Assembly (NCBI GenBank): GCA_963662715.1
Contig: OY759724.1
Location: forward strand, 2,074,662 to 2,138,661
DNA length: 64,000 nt
Source: Candidatus Omnitrophota bacterium
GTDB lineage: Bacteria; Omnitrophota; Gorgyraeia; Zapsychrales; JANLHA01
Direction: 5' to 3'
The notes under the pieces are model-generated. The model worked only from the letters and a program-made list of their open reading frames with translations, was not told where the DNA came from and made no database searches. Below are positions 3,699-41,567 of the stretch, one piece after another. How positions within the stretch are numbered: position 1 is the stretch's first letter; every line of letters starts with the position of its first letter. Made by a program: the position numbers and the translations under genes.

Positions 3699-4739
3699 AT
3701 GTCCGTGAAGAAGGCTTTAATAACCGGGGTGACAGGACAGGACGGGAGTTATCTGGCTGAACTTTTGCTCGACCAGGGCTATGAGGTCTATGGCCTCGTG
3801 CGACAAGAAGCTTTGGAAGATCCTAATCACAGGATGGAGAGATTTTTACATATCAGGGACAAGCTGAAATTGTCCGCCGCGTCTTTGGAAAGTTTTCCCA
3901 GCATTTTTAAGATCATTCAGGACGTCAAACCGGATGAGATTTATCATTTGGCCGCGCAGAGTTTCGTTTCTTATAGTTTTGATGACAAATTTTCCCCGCT
4001 GTTGACCAATATCAGCGGAACACATTATGCGCTTTCTTCCTGCAAATCCATGCCCGTTCCGGCCAAGTTTTATTTCGCCGGTTCGAGTGAAATGTTCGGG
4101 AAAGTGGATGCAGAACCCCAAAATGAATCAACGCCTTTTCATCCCCGGTCTCCTTACGGAATTTCCAAGGTGGCGGGTTTCCATTTGACCCGCAACTACC
4201 GTGAGTCTTACGAAATGTTTGCGTGTAACGGCATCTTATTCAATCATGAGTCTCCGCGCAGAGGATTTGAATTTGTCACCCGTAAAATCACATCCGGCGT
4301 GGCTAAAATTAAGTTCGGGCTGGCAGACAGGATCAGTTTAGGCAACCTGAACGCAAAACGCGACTGGGGATTTGCCGGGGATTATGTTAAAGCCATGTGG
4401 CTCATGTTGCAGCAGGAGAAGCCGGATGATTATGTTATTGCTACCGGTCATGCGCATACGGTGCGCGAATTTGTTGAGCTTTCGTTCAAGACGGTTGATA
4501 TGGAGATCCTTTGGGAAGGGAAGGGCATACACGAAAAAGGCATTGATGAGAAAAGCGGACGCGTTTTAGTTGATGTGAACAAAGAATTCTTCCGGCCCGA
4601 CCAAGTCCATGTCCTGAGAGGGGATTATACAAAAGCAAAAAGAATTTTAAACTGGGAACCAACCATTCAGTTCCATGATCTTGTCCCGATGATGGTCGAG
4701 GCGGATTGCCGTTTGTTCTCCCAGGACAAGATGCGATAA
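3699..4739 (+). CDS. gmd: GDP-mannose 4,6-dehydratase (divergent paralog)
   Basis: N-terminal Rossmann motif ITGVTGQDGSYLAELLL. Conserved Gmd blocks [49 protein letters not shown] ribosome-binding site before the ATG at 3699. Confidence 0.9.
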   Translation: MSVKKALITGVTGQDGSYLAELLLDQGYEVYGLVRQEALEDPNHRMERFLHIRDKLKLSAASLESFPSIFKIIQDVKPDEIYHLAAQSFVSYSFDDKFSPLLTNISGTHYALSSCKSMPVPAKFYFAGSSEMFGKVDAEPQNESTPFHPRSPYGISKVAGFHLTRNYRESYEMFACNGILFNHESPRRGFEFVTRKITSGVAKIKFGLADRISLGNLNAKRDWGFAGDYVKAMWLMLQQEKPDDYVIATGHAHTVREFVELSFKTVDMEILWEGKGIHEKGIDEKSGRVLVDVNKEFFRPDQVHVLRGDYTKAKRILNWEPTIQFHDLVPMMVEADCRLFSQDKMR

Positions 4740-30327: not shown

Positions 30328-31263
30328 ATGTTGCTGGAGTTGCAGGGGATACAAAAATATTTCCCGGTCAAACACAGCGTTTCTTGCGGGGCAAGAGAAG
30401 ACAGCTCTCCCGGAAATCTTGGCGCTTCTGTCGAACAGGCGGTCTCCGCCCTTGCCTGGTGGCAAAAGAGTTATGTCCGGGCGGTCGATGGAGTTGATTT
30501 AAGTATTGAGCAGGGGGAAGATCTGGGCTTGGTCGGAGAATCCGGTTCCGGAAAAACAACGTTAGGACGGCTTATTGTCAGGCTGTATTCTTTAGACAAG
30601 GGACGAATCTTCCTGGAGGGGAAAGACATTTCTTCTTCCCGGTCAGCTGTCCAGTTATTAAGGAAAAAAGTCCAAATGGTCTTCCAGGACCCTTATAGCA
30701 GTTTGAATCCCCGTTTCCCGGTAAGGAAAATTTTAAAGGAAGCCTTTCATCAATTGCGCCCTTTCCCGGACAGAAATTATCAAGAGCTTAAAATGATTGA
30801 AATGATGAAAGCGGTGGGGTTGGAAGGGGAAAATCTTAACCGGTTCCCTCATGAATTTAGCGGCGGGGAGAGGCAGCGTATCGCTATTGCACGGGCGCTG
30901 CTGATGAACCCGAAGCTTCTCATTTTAGACGAAGCGGTTTCTTCTTTGGATGTGCTCGTCCAGCAGCAGATCATTTCTTTGTTGAAAGAACTGCAGAAAA
31001 AGTTTAATGTCACGTATTTTTTTATTACGCATAATCTTCGAGTGGTCAAAAAATTGTGCAGACGTATTGCCGTTATGTATAAGGGGAAAATTGTTGAGCT
31101 GGGATATGCGGAAGACATTTTTGAGAATCCGCAACATGTTTATACAAAAGAATTATTGTCCGCTGCGGTGAATTATCAGGCATCGCAAAGTGATTTGGAA
31201 ATAGAGTTTGATAAAAGTTCCCGTTTGGTTGACTTGGGGAACGGACATTTTGTAATAAAGTGA
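30328..31263 (+). CDS. ABC transporter ATP-binding protein (OppF/DppF-like)
   Basis: Walker A GESGSGKTT, signature FSGGERQR, Walker B LILDEAVSSLD. Insertion before Walker A. Confidence 0.9.
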   Translation: MLLELQGIQKYFPVKHSVSCGAREDSSPGNLGASVEQAVSALAWWQKSYVRAVDGVDLSIEQGEDLGLVGESGSGKTTLGRLIVRLYSLDKGRIFLEGKDISSSRSAVQLLRKKVQMVFQDPYSSLNPRFPVRKILKEAFHQLRPFPDRNYQELKMIEMMKAVGLEGENLNRFPHEFSGGERQRIAIARALLMNPKLLILDEAVSSLDVLVQQQIISLLKELQKKFNVTYFFITHNLRVVKKLCRRIAVMYKGKIVELGYAEDIFENPQHVYTKELLSAAVNYQASQSDLEIEFDKSSRLVDLGNGHFVIK

Positions 31264-35054: not shown

Positions 35055-36266
35055 ATGATTGTGCAGCCAAAAATAAGAGGGTTTATTTGTACGACAGCCC
35101 ATCCTGCGGGCTGTGCTAAAAATGTCCAGGACCAGATTGACTATGTGAAAGAGCAGGGGCTTATTCAAGACGGCCCCGAAAGGGTTCTTGTGGTCGGAGC
35201 TTCAACAGGCTACGGCCTGGCGAGCCGTATCACGGTCGCTTTCGGATGCCGGGCTAAGACCATGGGTGTCTTTTATGAAAAAGCAGCGGAGGGGCGGCGC
35301 ACGGCGACGGCCGGGTGGTATAACTCGATTGCTTTTGACCAGGCCGCCATAAATGAAGGGCTTTACGCGAGAAGCTTTAACGGCGATGCGTTTAGCGACG
35401 AGATGAAGGATCGGGTCGTCTCGACGATCCGGGAGGACTGGGGAGGCGTTGATTTGCTGATCTACAGCTTGGCATCTCCCAGGCGTTTGCATCCGAAAAC
35501 AGGTCAATTGTCCAAATCCTCGTTGAAGCCAAGAGGCGCTCCCTATACGAACAAATCCATAGATTTTTCCATCAACAAAATTGTGAATGTGACCCTGCCT
35601 TCAGCCACAGAAGAAGATGTGCAGCAGACGATCGATGTTATGGGCGGTGAGGACTGGGACATGTGGGTGGCCGCATTAAAGCAGGCTAATCTGCTGTCTG
35701 AAAAATTTGTCACGGCTGCTTATTCGTATGTCGGCCCGGATGTGACGATGCCGGTTTATCGCAATGGAACGATTGGGGCGGCTAAAGACCATTTGGAAGA
35801 AACAGCCCGCAAAATGGACGAATGGCTTAGACAAAAAGGCGGCCGGGCTTTCGTGTCCGTGAACAAGGCTTTGATCACTCAATCCAGTTCGGCGATCCCT
35901 TTCATCCCGCTTTATTTCATTATTTTGATGAAAGTTATGAAGCAAAAAGGCGTTCATGAGGACTGTATTCATCAGATGGTCAGACTTTTTCATGAGAGGC
36001 TTTATGCCGGGGGAGAGATCCCGGTTGATGAACTTGGCCGCGTACGAGTGGATGATTGGGAGATGCGTCCGGATATCCAGAGTGAGGTCCGAGAGTTATG
36101 GGAAAAAGTATCTAACGAGAATGTTGAGCAGTTGGCTGATGTCCGGGGATATCATGAAGATTTCCTGAAGTTGTTCGGCTTTGGGTTGTCTGGCGTAGAT
36201 TATGAAGCTGATGTCGATATCGATTTAAAGTTCCCCGATTACGATTCTGTTATTATGAAAACATGA
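35055..36266 (+). CDS. fabV: trans-2-enoyl-CoA/ACP reductase (NADH), FabV family
   Basis: MIVQPKIRGFICTTAHPAGC N-terminus, GASTGYGLASRI, SYVGPDVT. Confidence 0.9.
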   Translation: MIVQPKIRGFICTTAHPAGCAKNVQDQIDYVKEQGLIQDGPERVLVVGASTGYGLASRITVAFGCRAKTMGVFYEKAAEGRRTATAGWYNSIAFDQAAINEGLYARSFNGDAFSDEMKDRVVSTIREDWGGVDLLIYSLASPRRLHPKTGQLSKSSLKPRGAPYTNKSIDFSINKIVNVTLPSATEEDVQQTIDVMGGEDWDMWVAALKQANLLSEKFVTAAYSYVGPDVTMPVYRNGTIGAAKDHLEETARKMDEWLRQKGGRAFVSVNKALITQSSSAIPFIPLYFIILMKVMKQKGVHEDCIHQMVRLFHERLYAGGEIPVDELGRVRVDDWEMRPDIQSEVRELWEKVSNENVEQLADVRGYHEDFLKLFGFGLSGVDYEADVDIDLKFPDYDSVIMKT

Positions 36267-36419
36267 CCTTTTCTGCCTCTTTCGGCATTCTTGATCAGAG
36301 GTGTCCGTTTTTGTCCGCAGTGTTTGAGGATGATTTGCAGTTAGTGGTGATCAGATGCATTTTATGCTGTTTCCTGCCAGAGGTTGTTTGTCTTCTTATT
36401 TAAAAAGTTTAATAAAAGA

Positions 36420-36448
36420 TTGACAAGGGTCTTTTGATCTAATACATT
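36420..36448 (+). promoter_or_regulatory. candidate sigma70 promoter for the HTH-ACP(-smc) transcript
   Basis: TTGACA at 36420..36425, 17-nt spacer, TACATT at 36443..36448. Confidence 0.35.
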
Positions 36449-36475
36449 GAAAATAAATAATTAAAATTAGTACTA

Positions 36476-36730
36476 ATGGAAAAAGATATGAACCAGAATC
36501 AGTTGATGACAATTGACGAAGTTGCTCAATATCTAAGGGTAAAAAAACGAACTGTTTATGACTGGCTTAAAAAAGATAAGATCCCGGCCATCAAGACCGT
36601 TGGGCAATGGCGGTTTAAGAAAGAAACGATTGATTCATGGCTTGAGGCTCAGCAGAGATTTATCGATCAGATTCGCATGGAAAAAGAGTCAAAGGATAAG
36701 GGAGGAACAAATGATGGCAGCACGAGGTGA
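36476..36730 (+). CDS. small helix-turn-helix DNA-binding protein (excisionase/HTH_17-like)
   Basis: LMTIDEVAQYLRVKKRTVYDWLKKDKIPAIKTVGQWRFKKETIDSWL matches the excisionase-family HTH. No ribosome-binding site seen. Start ambiguous (36476, 36488 or 36506). Confidence 0.6.
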   Translation: MEKDMNQNQLMTIDEVAQYLRVKKRTVYDWLKKDKIPAIKTVGQWRFKKETIDSWLEAQQRFIDQIRMEKESKDKGGTNDGSTR

Positions 36731-36974
36731 CTCTAATATTGAGAAAGACATTCGGATGCTTGTTGCAGACATCTTGGAGACTGAACCCGAAGAGATAGAT
36801 GGTGAGGCAAAGTTTGTTCAGGATTTAGGTATGGACTCTATGATGGCTTTGGAGATTTTAGCCGGATTAGAAAAGAAGTATCGCATCGTTATCCCGGAAG
36901 AGATGCTGGCAAAATTTGTCAATCTCAACACGACTGTGAAGATTGTAGAGGATCTTTTAAGAGAAAAGTCATAG
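36711..36974 (+). CDS. acyl carrier protein-like (phosphopantetheine-binding)
   Basis: GGAGG ribosome-binding site at 36701..36705, ATG at 36711/36714. ACP core FVQDLGMDSMMALEILAGLEKKY with the DS(M) attachment serine. Overlaps the HTH gene by 20 nt. Confidence 0.75.
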   Translation: MMAARGDSNIEKDIRMLVADILETEPEEIDGEAKFVQDLGMDSMMALEILAGLEKKYRIVIPEEMLAKFVNLNTTVKIVEDLLREKS

Positions 36975-37026
36975 GACGGTCTTTCCGAGAATTCTTCAGA
37001 ATTTCCATCCCAGAGAGGAGTAAGGT

Positions 37027-40000
37027 GTGTTTTTTAAAAGATTAGAAATCTTTGGATTTAAATCTTTTGCGGATAAAACTGTGATGAATTTCGGCCCAGG
37101 CGTTACGGCGATTGTCGGGCCTAACGGTTGCGGTAAAAGCAATGTTTTTGATGCTATCCGCTGGGTGTTAGGGGAGCAGAGCGTTAAGGAACTGCGTGGC
37201 TCGGCCATGGAGGATGTCATCTTTAATGGCACGGAGAAGAAACCTTCTTTAGGTTTTGCCGAAGTGAGCCTTACTTTTTCCAATGAGTCGCGTGCTTTAC
37301 CCGTTGATTATAACGAAGTAACCGTAACGAGACGCCTGTTCCGTTCGGGGGAAAGTGAGTATCTGCTGAATAAGACGACAGTCCGGTTGAAAGATATCGC
37401 TGAGCTTTTTATGGGGACGGGTATTGGCGCAGAAGCCTATTCTCTTGTTCAGCAGGGAAAAGTTGATTTGGTCGTCAGCGCTAAACCGGAAGACCGGAGA
37501 ATTATTCTGGATGAGGCTTCGGGGATAACAAAGTACAAATCGAAGCGGAAAGAAGCTTTGAATAAACTGCGAGACACAGAGAACAACCTGCTGCGGATTA
37601 ATGATATTATCGTTGAAGTCAAAAGACAGATCGCTTCGCTGGAAAGACAGGCGAATAAAGCCCGGCGTTATAGAGAAGAATTTGAGAAGTTGAAGGACCT
37701 GGAAGTCCAATACGCGGGGATGGAACTCAATGAGTTTTCCGAGCAAAGCCAGCGTCTCCGGCAGCATATTGCGGAAATGAAAGACCGGGAGAACCAGGAA
37801 ATCGAAGCCCTGAAAGAGCTTAATGAACTTTTAGGCCATGAAACGAGTTTTATGGAGGAGCTGGACGAAAAGATCAGCGAAATGACCGGGCAGGCGATAA
37901 AAGTGGAAGGTCAGGTTGACCTCCATCAGAGGCAAATTGAATTTAACGAAGAAAGAATTGAAAATGCCTTGTCTCAACAAAAGCGAATTGCTGAACATAA
38001 GGGGCAGATCCGGGAACGGTGCCGGCTGCAGGAAGAAAAGCTGGAAGAACTCCGTGTCTCATTGTCTCAATCGGAACACGTGATTGAAGGGAAGACCGGG
38101 CAGCTTGAAGAGAAAAGGAGTTCTCTTAACACGATCGTTGAAGGAATTGCCACGGCGCGTTTGAATATCCGGGATGAGGAGGAAAAAATATTAACGATTA
38201 CCGCTAATCAGGTTCAGGTGCGCAACAGGTTGACGGAGGTCATGAAAGAGGTCCAGGGCAGTTTGGCCAGAAAGAGACGGCTGGAAATAGAGAATGTCAA
38301 AGTGGCCCAGGAAAAAGAAGTGGTCGATCATAGATATGCCGATATCTGCCAGAAAACCCAAACAGCGAAACAGACCATTCAGGATCTGCGGGGCCAGAGG
38401 GAAACCCAGGTCACTCAATTGAAGGCTCTGCAGAGAGAGATGGATGCCCTAAAACAATGCATTGACGATCTTGAAAAAAAGAAACTGTTTTTAAAGTCAC
38501 AAAAAGAATTTATTGAGAAATTGCGTGTCCAATATCAAGATATCCCCGATCCGATTGTCTCCGGCCGTTTTGTGACGACGACATCCCCTTCGCAACATCA
38601 TACCGGTATTATCGGTAAGGTCCGGGAGGTTGTTCCTCTTCAGGGGGAGCGTTTGGCCCAGATGCAGGCCTACTTGGGAGAGCAGGGGGATCAGTGTTTT
38701 GAGATCATCTGTGAAACAAAGTTTATTGAGTTAGACCCGCAACATATCTCGGTGAAGATCGATGAGTTGAGCCAGGACATTTCGGACCGTATGGTAACGA
38801 AGAGCCACTTGGAGAATGATATCAGGGGTTTGTCGGATCTGGTGGAACAACTTGAAGAAAAAATCCAGGAACAGGAGAAAGTCCTTTCCATTTTTGAGGC
38901 CCAAAAGGATGATGTGATCAAGGAAACGGACAAATTGAACGATGAATTGGATCTTGTGAAATTGGAGCTGGAAGAAGTCACGGGGATGTTGTCCTCTTTA
39001 AAGAAATCCGAGGAAGAATTAACCATTAATCTGGATTCCTTGTCTCAAGAGCTGGCTTTTTGTCAGGTCCGGATTCAGGAAGGGCAGAAACTGGTTGCTG
39101 ACAATTCCCAGCAGAGAGAAGAAACAACCATCCTGATTGCTCAGATAGAGTCGGAAATCCGTTCGGAACAGGAAAAAAGAAACAGCTATAGTGAGAATTT
39201 AAAGCTTTATCAGGAAACCTTGGAAGGCAGCATCAAGGAAATAGAACAGCTGGATCAAGAGGAGGCTGAAGAGCAGTTGAAACACCAGCAGTTCGAGCAG
39301 GAAATTGTGTCCTTGCTGGCGAAGATAGAAGATGTTAAAAAACAGAAAAGCTCTTTGCAGAACGTGTTGAGAGATTATGAGAAGCAAAAGGATGAGGTTG
39401 TCAGCCGCATCAACAGTGTGCGGGCGAACATCTCTTCCAACAACTCAGATCTGGAGGAAATCAGAAGTCTTGTCCACCAGGACCAGTTTAATGATCAGGA
39501 AATTTCGTTTCACATCAAAGAGATCAAAGACCGTCTGCAGCAGGCCTACCGGATCGATTTTGACGAGTATGTCCGTCAGAGGAACGAACAGGTCCCGGCC
39601 GGGGCCGAGGTTCCTGAGGCGTCTGCTCCGAAGGAGCTTCCCGATATTGATGAGTTGAAAGAAACGATCAACCGCCTGCGCAAGCGTTGCGATGCCTTTG
39701 GGTCCGTAAACTTAGTGGCCATTGAAGAGTTTGAGGAGCTAAAGCAGCGTTTTGAATTCCTGACCAGTCAGCAGAGCGATTTGATTTCAGCGAAACATTC
39801 CTGCAGCAAACGATCGTCAAGATTAACCGCCAAACACGGCAAATGTTTATGGATACGTTTACCAAGGTGAGTGAAGAGTTCCGTATCTATTTCAGAATGC
39901 TTTTCGGCGGAGGAGAAGCCCAGCTCGTTTTGATGGATCCCGACAATGTCCTTGAGACAGGGATTGAAATTATCGCGAGGCCTCCTGGCAAAAAACTGCA

Positions 40001-40340
40001 GAATATCAGCCTGCTTTCCGGAGGGGAAAAGACCCTGACGGCGATCGCTCTCATTTTCGGCGTTTTCAAGGTGAATCCCAGCCCGTTTTGTGTCCTCGAT
40101 GAAATTGACGCTGCCCTGGATGAATCAAACGTGGGACGGTTCAGTTATCTTCTTAAGGACTTTGCCGAAATTGCCCAGTTTATTGTTATAACTCATAACA
40201 AGAAGACCATCGCTTCTGCAAAAGTCATGTACGGGATTACGATGCAGGAGACAGGGGTCTCTAAAATCGTGTCGGTGAAGTTCGCGGAGAAAGACGAGAC
40301 AAAGACGGAGAATCTTCAGGCCGTTACCGCCAGTGTATGA
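37027..40340 (+). CDS. smc: chromosome segregation protein SMC; reading frame interrupted by an apparent 1-nt deletion at about 39801 (ORFs 37027..39870 and 39843..40340)
   Basis: N-terminal Walker [10 protein letters not shown] and coiled coils. C-terminal signature [16 protein letters not shown] and Walker [12 protein letters not shown] are in the second ORF. The junction reads ...DLISAKHS | [20 protein letters not shown]..., the conserved SMC C-terminal motif split between frames. Confidence 0.85.
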
Positions 40341-40368: not shown

Positions 40369-41567
40369 TTAATATTTTTCTTCTCTAAAATGATTGGCAA
40401 AGCAGGTTTTGTTTTTGCCGCTGAATTTTGCGATATACATGGCTTTATCCGCCATGGCGATTAAATCTTCTTTGTTCATCGCGTCATCAGGGTAATTGGC
40501 CAGCCCAAGGCTGATTGTCATGTGAAGAGACTGGCCTTCCGAAGGCTCGGGAAAAGAATATTCCTCAATACGCTTGCGTAATCTCTCGGCGATATCCCAT
40601 CCTTGATCGAGATTGGCTCCCGATAAGATAATCGCAAATTCCTCCCCTCCGTAACGGCAGACAAAGTCAATATCCCGGGAGGAGTTGGTGAGTATCTGGG
40701 CCATGTTTTTCAGGAGCTGGTCTCCATGCTGATGCCCGTAGGTGTCGTTGATTTTTTTAAAGTCGTCAATATCAATCATAACCAGGCTTAACGGCTGTTT
40801 CAGCAGGATAGCCTGGTTAAGTTCTTCCGTCAGTTTTTCTTGAAAGAAACGGTGATTCCAGAGACCGGTGATTGGGTCGGTCAGGCTTTGCAGAACAACC
40901 ATTTCGTATAAATGGGAGTTTTCGATGGCAAGCCCGGCTTGGTTGGCCAGCATGGTAAAAATTTTTATGTCATCCTGACTGATAGGCTTTTGGGTGTAAA
41001 TATTGTCGGCGATAATGAGTCCGTTAACCTCGTCTTTGGCTTTAAGGGGCATGATGAGCAGTTCATTCGTGTAGAATATTTTTAGAAGAGGATCATCTTT
41101 ATATTCCGATATGGCATAAGGAAGCAGATGCCAGGGGGTCCCTCTGAAGTAGGCTTGGGAAAGGAGAAAAGGGCTGACGGGGTCCAGAGGAAAGCGAAGG
41201 TCTTTCACCGATTTAAAAAGGCTTGCCTGGTCGATAGTGTTGTAAACTTTATCGGCTTGAATGAGGTCGTTAAGATCCTGGTTGCAGTTTTCGATGTATT
41301 CCAGACTTTATTGGCATGTTCTCCCGATTCCGGGCCTATGGCCATTTTGCATTCCAGGACTTTTTTCTGTGAGTTGACAAGAAAGAGAATCGCCCGGTTG
41401 TACCCGAGCCCGGTGTGGGAGGTGACTCCTGTCAGGATAATATAGAGGATATGATTCAGTTCAAGGGTCGTCCTCATGGCGCAGCTTACTTCGTAGAGGA
41501 CGTTGAGCTCCCGGTTCGCTTGTTTGATGCGGTTTTCGGTCATGTCTCTTGTTGTGATTTCAGTCAT
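40369..41567 (-). CDS. GAF domain-containing diguanylate cyclase (GGDEF/GGEEF); frame interrupted at about 41285 (ORFs 41205..41567 and 40369..41208)
   Basis: N-terminal GAF (first ORF, continuing in the second ORF's upstream frame as ...YIENCNQDLNDLIQADKVYNTIDQASLFKSVKDLRF). C-terminal GGDEF with RYGGEEFAIIL. Confidence 0.8.

Follow-up and report, generated by a model that had tools for sequence, protein, structure and literature searches.

Streptomyces BldC is a small, stand-alone MerR-like winged-helix protein of 68 amino acids (aa), with neither an effector nor a coiled-coil domain. It binds head to tail on variable numbers of direct repeats, its Arg30 reads the conserved G of the AATTXXXX(C) repeat, and its targets include the chromosome-segregation operon smeA-sffA (PMC5859096). 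RacA, a chromosome-anchoring protein of Bacillus subtilis, has the MerR-like winged helix as well; it differs in its long coiled coil and in its targets, GC-rich palindromes to which it binds as a symmetric dimer (PMC5859096). In B. subtilis a gene for an acyl carrier protein (ACP) lies upstream of smc, the gene for the chromosome segregation ATPase, and is co-transcribed with it in the operon acpA-rnc-smc-ftsY (PMC4838370). Here we analysed a locus of Candidatus Omnitrophota (contig OY759724.1, positions 2,074,662 to 2,138,661; this whole stretch of 64,000 nucleotides is called the window below), in which the gene of a small helix-turn-helix (HTH) protein of the HTH_17 family precedes an ACP gene and smc on the same strand. 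We consider it probable, at roughly 0.6, that the locus forms the 5′ end of a housekeeping operon which the Omnitrophota inherit vertically, and in which an autoregulating BldC-like factor controls acp-smc.

The sequence-only reading of this DNA had proposed an excisionase-type HTH gene followed by an ACP gene, and profile searches agreed with both family assignments. The HTH protein scored 68 bits against Pfam HTH_17 (cut-off 27) and 61.3 bits against TIGR01764, named 'excise' (cut-off 28.8), and the ACP scored 48 bits against PF00550, PP-binding (cut-off 20.8). The HTH open reading frame (ORF; 36476 to 36730, + strand) is a real gene conserved in relatives: it has more than 370 homologs, 20 residues are invariant in an alignment of 50, and the core of the protein is 61-87% identical across the Omnitrophota, comparable to SMC and FabV. 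Over the phylum this core is nearly invariant (LMTIEEVAxYLRVKKRTIYDWLKKGKIPAIKTVGQWRFKK). Translation from ATG 36488, which is kept across ~50 species in the register M-x4-L-M-T-I, gives 80 aa, also the length of an identical database entry (P0001); the alternative upstream ATG, at 36476, gives 84 aa. The length had been put at roughly 75 to 84 aa; 80 aa is most likely. A C-terminal tail of ~25 aa is found only in the sub-clade of the window (the window, L001, L004-6, L088 and L089; L numbers are our handles for related loci).

BldC is the closest solved structure to the window protein by sequence and by fold. In a sequence search of the PDB with phmmer the best match was BldC (6AMA/6AMK, E = 0.003), and the next was RacA (E = 0.75). 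An AF2 model (pLDDT 76) has the topology b1-H1-H2-b2-b3-H3, and the top seven Foldseek matches to it are BldC chains (rmsd 1.4-2.6 Å, mostly ~1.5 Å; 32-38% identity; target-normalised TM-score 0.72-0.79), followed by RacA, Xis proteins, RdfS and MerR regulators. Judged from sequence and predicted fold, the nearest characterised relative is Streptomyces BldC. RacA (PDB 5I41, 5I44), the second-closest solved relative, has a MerR-like winged helix and a chromosomal role, but its sequence match to the window protein is weak. A classical MerR regulator was considered and rejected: the protein scores below the cut-offs of both Pfam MerR (20.6 bits, cut-off 28.2) and MerR_1 (21.5 bits, cut-off 21.6), it has 80 aa only, and the promoter spacer is 17 nt. 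Classical MerR regulators have a dimerisation coiled coil at the C-terminus and a domain for effector binding, and MerR-controlled promoters typically have a spacer of 19 nt.

We sampled the locus across the phylum in two independent ways. For the first sample, 80 species loci were fetched with the ACP profile and their neighbours mapped by tblastn; for the second, 80 metagenome contigs were anchored on the HTH ortholog. Among the ACP-anchored loci, smc follows the ACP gene in ~70 and the HTH gene precedes it in ~55, and ~18 have fabV (or another gene), ACP and smc without the HTH gene. Six of the HTH-anchored contigs end before smc. In the remaining, informative contigs smc follows the HTH gene without exception (74/74), as HTH-ACP-smc in 52 and as HTH-smc without ACP in 22, so the synteny is conserved in relatives. 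In the lineage of P0047, for example, the order is glgC-like, fabV, HTH, smc, and its metagenome-assembled genome (MAG) has the ACP gene in an ACP-KAS-FabZ-KAS cluster (L078). Since the HTH gene and the ACP gene each occur upstream of smc without the other, smc is the constant element. The suggestion that HTH and ACP form a dedicated regulator and carrier unit does not fit this pattern. Its alternative, in which the HTH protein would regulate the downstream smc, has the strongest support of those offered.

The distance between the HTH and ACP genes varies from -46 to +115 nt (median ~14), and that between ACP and smc is mostly 20-85 nt (~70 species). The overlap of 20 nt noted in the window was confirmed (HTH stop TGA at 36728-36730, ACP start ATG at 36711) and is confined to the window sub-clade, whose HTH protein has the C-terminal tail. 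Many records titled 'uncultured Planctomycetales bacterium' (L005, L010, L012, L014 and others) have an Omnitrophota-type HTH-ACP-smc locus at 60-80% identity; these are probably mislabelled Omnitrophota MAGs.

As had been read from the sequence, the HTH-ACP pair lies between fabV (to 36266) and smc (from 37027) with a promoter-like element of its own, which a promoter scan placed at 36420-36448 (TTGACA-17-TACATT). Phylum-wide the promoter block is TTGACA-N14-(G)TAATAAAKTG, and the version in the window is TAATACATTG. The extended form TTGAC-N-TAATAMAKTR has a single occurrence in the 64-kb window, where the chance expectation is 0. Across 0.9 Mb of related loci the promoter block has 33 matches, 32 of them upstream of the HTH gene and one upstream of the ACP gene in a locus without HTH (L014). 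An alignment of seven close relatives showed that 67 nt (36401-36467) are nearly invariant in the window sub-clade, whereas flanking intergenic DNA diverges. This block includes an AT-rich stretch just past the -10 element and could be an operator or an element of the 5′ untranslated region. At 31226-31262 the -10 block recurs as GTAATAAAGTG, 19 nt after a TTGAC and just upstream of a TPR gene (31390); the promoters of the TPR and HTH genes may be related, with the TPR gene heading the same synteny block.

In the related loci the motif ATGTAA is 5.9-fold enriched upstream of the HTH gene. Its copies sit at 10-bp multiples and are phase-locked to the -35 element, at positions -113, -103, -93, -83, -73, -53, -3, +7 and +17 from the start of TTGACA, with the repeat consensus www-ATGTAA-wwww. 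We found 86% of motif pairs in 10-bp phase, versus 30% when motifs are placed at random and 29% in a control set of 167 intergenic regions, where the density of the motif was also 4.5-fold lower. With an array defined as at least three phased copies, arrays are restricted to this site: all 18 found in the species loci plus the window, and all 34 in the metagenome contigs, lie ahead of the HTH gene, on the coding strand. They are present in HTH-ACP-smc and HTH-smc contexts alike, in 17 of 51 loci with the HTH gene versus 0 of 17 acp-smc loci lacking it (Fisher p = 0.004). Because the arrays resemble the head-to-tail sites of BldC and Xis-type proteins (PMC5859096), we propose that the HTH gene is autoregulated. 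The candidate repeats are 10-bp ATGTAA units here, versus the 9-bp AATTXXXX(C) unit of BldC.

Tandem Repeats Finder reported no repeats in the window intergenic region; the program barely detects even the arrays of L037, since conservation there covers no more than 5-6 positions in 10. A repeat search over 36200-36520 gave short repeats only, probably chance occurrences. Testing HTH residues column by column against the presence of arrays returned lineage markers only.

The ACP has the motif LGMDS43MMALE, in which Ser43 is the attachment residue for phosphopantetheine, and DLGMDSMMALEILA, including D42-S43, is invariant in 34 orthologs. Its description as a canonical ACP thus holds for the attachment motif with Ser43 but not for the AcpP equivalog TIGR00517, against which it scores 49.5 bits, below the cut-off of 70.45; helix II is DSMMALEILAGLEKKY, not DSLDTVELVMALEEEF. 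In other species ACP orthologs lie inside fabF-fabG-acp-fabZ-fabF clusters, and 7 of the 80 ACP-anchored loci are in a fab cluster. One of these clusters (L082) has the order fabF-like, FabG, ACP, FabZ, FabF, thioester reductase and two oxidoreductases, with NCBIfam scores of 316 bits for FabG (cut-off 298), 155 for FabZ (113) and 411 for FabF (387). The fab clusters of acp-smc genomes were located with a KAS protein from an ACP-containing cluster. Contig Ga0265297_10000002 (1.17 Mb) carries HTH-ACP-smc (L117) and, separately, a fab cluster in the order rib operon, fabF, fabG, fabZ (L170); its fabG-fabZ gap is 18 nt, and no ACP gene was found in the 15 kb around it. Assembly DATDQB01 has the same pairing, acp-smc (L019) and a fab cluster without ACP (L172). 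The ACP-less cluster was thus seen in two genomes other than that of the window, and what was examined was the regions around the fab clusters rather than whole genomes. Contig 22 of SBBO01 ends right past fabG and is uninformative on ACP. In the genome of the window, the KAS ortholog (P0296) is on the same contig as the window. In a neighbour-joining tree, the ACPs of KAS clusters are intermixed with the smc-linked ACPs.

Since ACP orthologs lie in fab clusters, the fab clusters of acp-smc genomes lack an ACP gene and the tree is interleaved, we conclude from these comparisons that the ACP is the carrier of type II fatty acid synthesis (FAS-II) in the Omnitrophota, moved from the fab cluster to beside smc. 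This carrier had been missed by annotation thresholds. Nor is it a stand-alone ACP, as had been supposed: the upstream neighbour, fabV, encodes enoyl-ACP reductase, and the gene appears to have moved out of a fab cluster. Its relocation echoes the B. subtilis operon, where a fatty-acid ACP gene is likewise upstream of smc. In contrast to that operon, the window locus has no rnc between acp and smc, no ftsY was seen downstream, and the HTH gene leads. Around the fab clusters of L170-L172 we also observed a conserved Omnitrophota block, ribBA-ribH-nusB-PHP-ribD-ribE, fabF-fabG-fabZ, acylphosphatase, ligA and an xerC-like gene, in which the fab genes are appended to the riboflavin operon.

A single sigma-70-type promoter, at 36420-36448, would then drive HTH, ACP and smc, in that order. 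The HTH protein would bind its own promoter region and set the level of acp-smc transcription, its binding sites in many lineages being the 10-bp-phased ATGTAA direct repeats, to which it would bind as BldC does, as a head-to-tail oligomer. The ACP would be translated from its own strong Shine-Dalgarno sequence, which in the window lies within the end of the HTH gene. The genes and their domains, the synteny, the conservation of the promoter and the confinement of the arrays to this site are observations; that the three genes are co-transcribed, that the HTH protein binds DNA here, and the direction of its regulatory effect we infer. The features of the locus are consistent with an operon: the genes are on one strand, are separated by short gaps or overlap, and follow a single strong, conserved promoter, and a sequence scan of the locus found no terminator-like site on the + strand.

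Several observations weigh against the reading of the HTH protein as a BldC-like autoregulator of acp-smc. It scores 30.5 bits against the NCBIfam BldC model (NF033787), far below the cut-off of 77, and in the alignment of KTVTRW with RTVYDW the BldC residue Arg30 is replaced by Asp in the window protein. ATGTAA arrays are present in ~35-40% of lineages, so that most lineages lack them. The window sub-clade has no ATGTA arrays despite an identical recognition helix, and the operator inference is thus not directly transferable to the window, whose clade differs from BldC also by its added C-terminal helix. A different factor, for example an OmpR-type regulator, could be the binder of the arrays. 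Finally, the HTH gene was lost several times while the promoter and acp-smc stayed, which indicates that it is dispensable for expression as such. Repeated loss suggests a modulatory rather than an essential role, and counts against an obligatory SMC cofactor.

This last point bears on the possibility that the HTH protein is a partner of SMC in chromosome organisation, which would polymerise on the phased repeats as on a centromere-like or loading site and recruit or position SMC. The adjacency of HTH and smc is strict in all 74 informative contigs, the arrays occur at this locus only, the second-closest solved relative anchors chromosomes, and the BldC target smeA-sffA is a chromosome-segregation operon; in addition, no canonical hinge is detectable in this SMC, and MADS operons also pair an HTH_17 protein (MAD1) with an SMC-head ATPase (MAD3). 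Nevertheless, we regard such a partnership as unlikely, as several lineages have independently lost the HTH gene yet retain smc, most lineages, the window included, have no arrays, and the arrays overlap the promoter, as fits autoregulation. Somewhat more doubtful still is a phylum-specific SMC-associated factor forming BldC-like filaments on the ATGTAA arrays beside smc, which would act on an SMC of unusual hinge by loading, targeting or tuning it. By analogy, and with the same low likelihood, it would be a functional counterpart of ParB-parS or of a centromere-binding protein, beyond an autoregulator. If the HTH protein does act with SMC, and not only on the promoter, it would represent an SMC accessory factor of a new kind.

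It is comparably improbable that the HTH protein regulates lipid synthesis in connection with the ACP, perhaps by sensing acyl-ACP in the way of FabT, with smc as a bystander. The co-repressor of FabT is acyl-ACP, and FabT and FapR, repressors of fatty-acid synthesis whose genes lie in fab operons, resemble the HTH protein in that the regulator gene stands beside acp and fab genes. Their folds (MarR, DeoR) are unrelated, however, and have ligand-binding capacity, whereas the 80-aa protein has no ligand-binding domain and little room for sensing. The overlap of HTH and ACP in the window suggests translational coupling, fabV is upstream in many species, and HTH_17 paralogs (39-48% identical) head FAS-II clusters in L077, L080, L081 and L082. 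Against this, the window-type HTH gene tracks smc and not ACP: 22 of the 74 informative contigs have HTH-smc without ACP, ~18 species have acp-smc without HTH, and no HTH gene is part of the fab clusters in acp-smc genomes. A remnant excisionase or recombination directionality factor (RDF), or a regulator left from a degraded mobile, restriction-modification or MADS element, is very improbable. Domain-level matches are found (TIGR01764, 61 bits; NCBIfam MAD1, NF047737, 70.5 bits; PADLOC mad1, 40.5 bits), but the MAD1 match falls short of the cut-off (80), integrase, methyltransferase and MAD6-8 genes are absent within ~10 kb, composition is uniform, and the gene occupies one chromosomal slot throughout the phylum, a synteny that effectively refutes the idea. 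Least probable of all is a spurious HTH ORF, arisen by chance where the ACP gene would have a long 5′ leader. The weak or absent Shine-Dalgarno sequence of the ORF would allow it, and it is refuted by the HTH_17 score, the number of homologs, the conserved start register and a reasonably confident structure model.

Paralogous HTH_17 genes of this kind, 39-48% identical to that of the window, were observed at the head of FAS-II clusters in some Omnitrophota; the clusters behind them contain fabF/fabG/acp/fabZ/fabF together with thioester reductase, GMC oxidoreductase and nitroreductase genes. It seems that operons of this phylum are repeatedly led by small HTH_17 proteins. No paralogs of the HTH protein or of the ACP, and no KAS, FabG or FabZ homologs, were found elsewhere in the 64-kb window.

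The surroundings of the locus agree with a housekeeping context. Within ~10 kb on either side we found no integrase, phage, restriction-modification, methyltransferase or defence genes, in line with the absence of integrase and restriction-modification genes noted from the sequence; the flanking genes are those of an oligopeptide ABC transporter, a TPR protein, a GlgC-like transferase, FabV and a GGDEF protein, with cvpA, NIF3, dnaG and rpoD. The window is even in GC content and in GC skew, with no compositional island. As the GC skew is positive throughout, we rejected the idea of a replication origin or terminus close to the locus. An excisionase function of the HTH protein was rejected as well, since there is no integrase or mobile element and the gene is in the same slot in ~130 related loci. 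Excisionases and RDFs such as Xis and RdfS have the domain family and fold in common with the window protein, which differs from them in having no partner integrase, att site or mobile element and in being encoded by a vertically inherited housekeeping gene. From its sequence and setting we conclude that it is a transcription factor and not an RDF. The label 'excisionase' is a domain name only, and the false lead towards a mobile element is removed.

A MADS system was also considered, since in such systems MAD1, an HTH_17 protein, is encoded in one operon with MAD3, an SMC-head ATPase, and PADLOC matched mad3 to the SMC head with 225.7 bits. The definition of the system makes MAD6, MAD7 and MAD8 mandatory within 10 genes, and PADLOC gave no match to MAD6-8 among the neighbours. 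With a MAD1 score below cut-off, MAD6-8 absent and flanking genes of housekeeping type, the candidate was rejected; unlike a MADS operon, the locus has no methyltransferase, and its ATPase is a full-length SMC.

The HTH protein is, in sum of family and place, a phylum-specific member of the BldC-like / HTH_17 regulators, of modest novelty. The likeness to BldC extends to direct repeats, phased arrays of which are present at the own promoters of relatives of the window gene. The differences are the other phylum and the fixed position upstream of smc: across this uncultured phylum a BldC-like family is locked to smc, with phased ATGTAA repeats as a candidate operator.

The features of the locus are listed in Table 1. 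fabV belongs to a conserved block of glgC-like, fabV, (HTH), (ACP) and smc. The ACP-smc gap in the window is 52 nt. As regards ribosome binding, the strong Shine-Dalgarno sequence claimed for the ACP gene was found (GGGAGG, 5 nt before the ATG), and the claim that the HTH gene has none holds with the reservation that a weak GGA precedes its start. The position of the ACP Shine-Dalgarno sequence within the end of the HTH gene suggests translational coupling. An Rfam scan of 35900-37200 gave no credible match.

Table 1. Coordinates of the features at the HTH-ACP-smc locus (window numbering) and of paralogous HTH_17 genes in related loci
Feature	Position	Strand	Details
fabV (enoyl-ACP reductase)	35055..36266	+	NCBIfam FabV 605 bits, cut-off 400; Pfam Enoyl_reductase
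Promoter block, ~67 nt	36401..36467	+	Alignment of 7 close relatives
Sigma-70-type promoter	36420..36449	+	-35 TTGACA 36420-36425; 17-nt spacer; -10 TACATT 36443-36448; promoter scan
HTH_17 gene, small winged-helix DNA-binding protein, BldC-like	36488..36730	+	80 aa
Shine-Dalgarno GGGAGG of ACP gene	36700..36705	+	Read from sequence; inside 3′ end of HTH gene
Acyl carrier protein gene	36711..36974	+	87 aa; PF00550 48 bits; Ser43 codon 36837-36839
smc (chromosome segregation ATPase)	37027..40340	+	SMC_N at both ends; own GGAG
Paralogous HTH_17 genes	L077 4959-5189; L081 1010-1222; L080 ~2160-2350; L082 ~3755-3935		

In the window, smc is split into ORFs of 947 and 165 aa by a 1-nt deletion near 39800 (39795-39805), at CATTC[N]CTGCAG. 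We located the frameshift by tblastn and blastn against five close relatives, in which smc is one ORF of 1098-1134 aa. The deletion may be an indel introduced by the assembly, or the gene may truly be a pseudogene. The gene for a GAF-GGDEF protein (40369-41567, - strand) is also broken into two frames, near 41330, and is one ORF of 397 aa in L001; a second frameshift within 2 kb points to assembly indel errors rather than biology.

The intact smc ortholog of L001 (6542-9835) scores 885 bits against TIGR02168 (cut-off 567) and has SMC_N at both ends. In the hinge region (window 38377-39000, and L001) there was no match to Pfam SMC_hinge, and the central 208 aa did not match solved PDB hinges. 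Omnitrophota SMC is ~85 aa shorter than the TIGR02168 model, and its hinge may be miniaturised or very divergent. On this genuine SMC head of L001 the PADLOC mad3 profile scored 226 bits, far above the LmuB and JetC profiles. MAD3 looks like a close derivative of the SMC head, and the mad3 profile could yield false defence-system calls on housekeeping smc genes.

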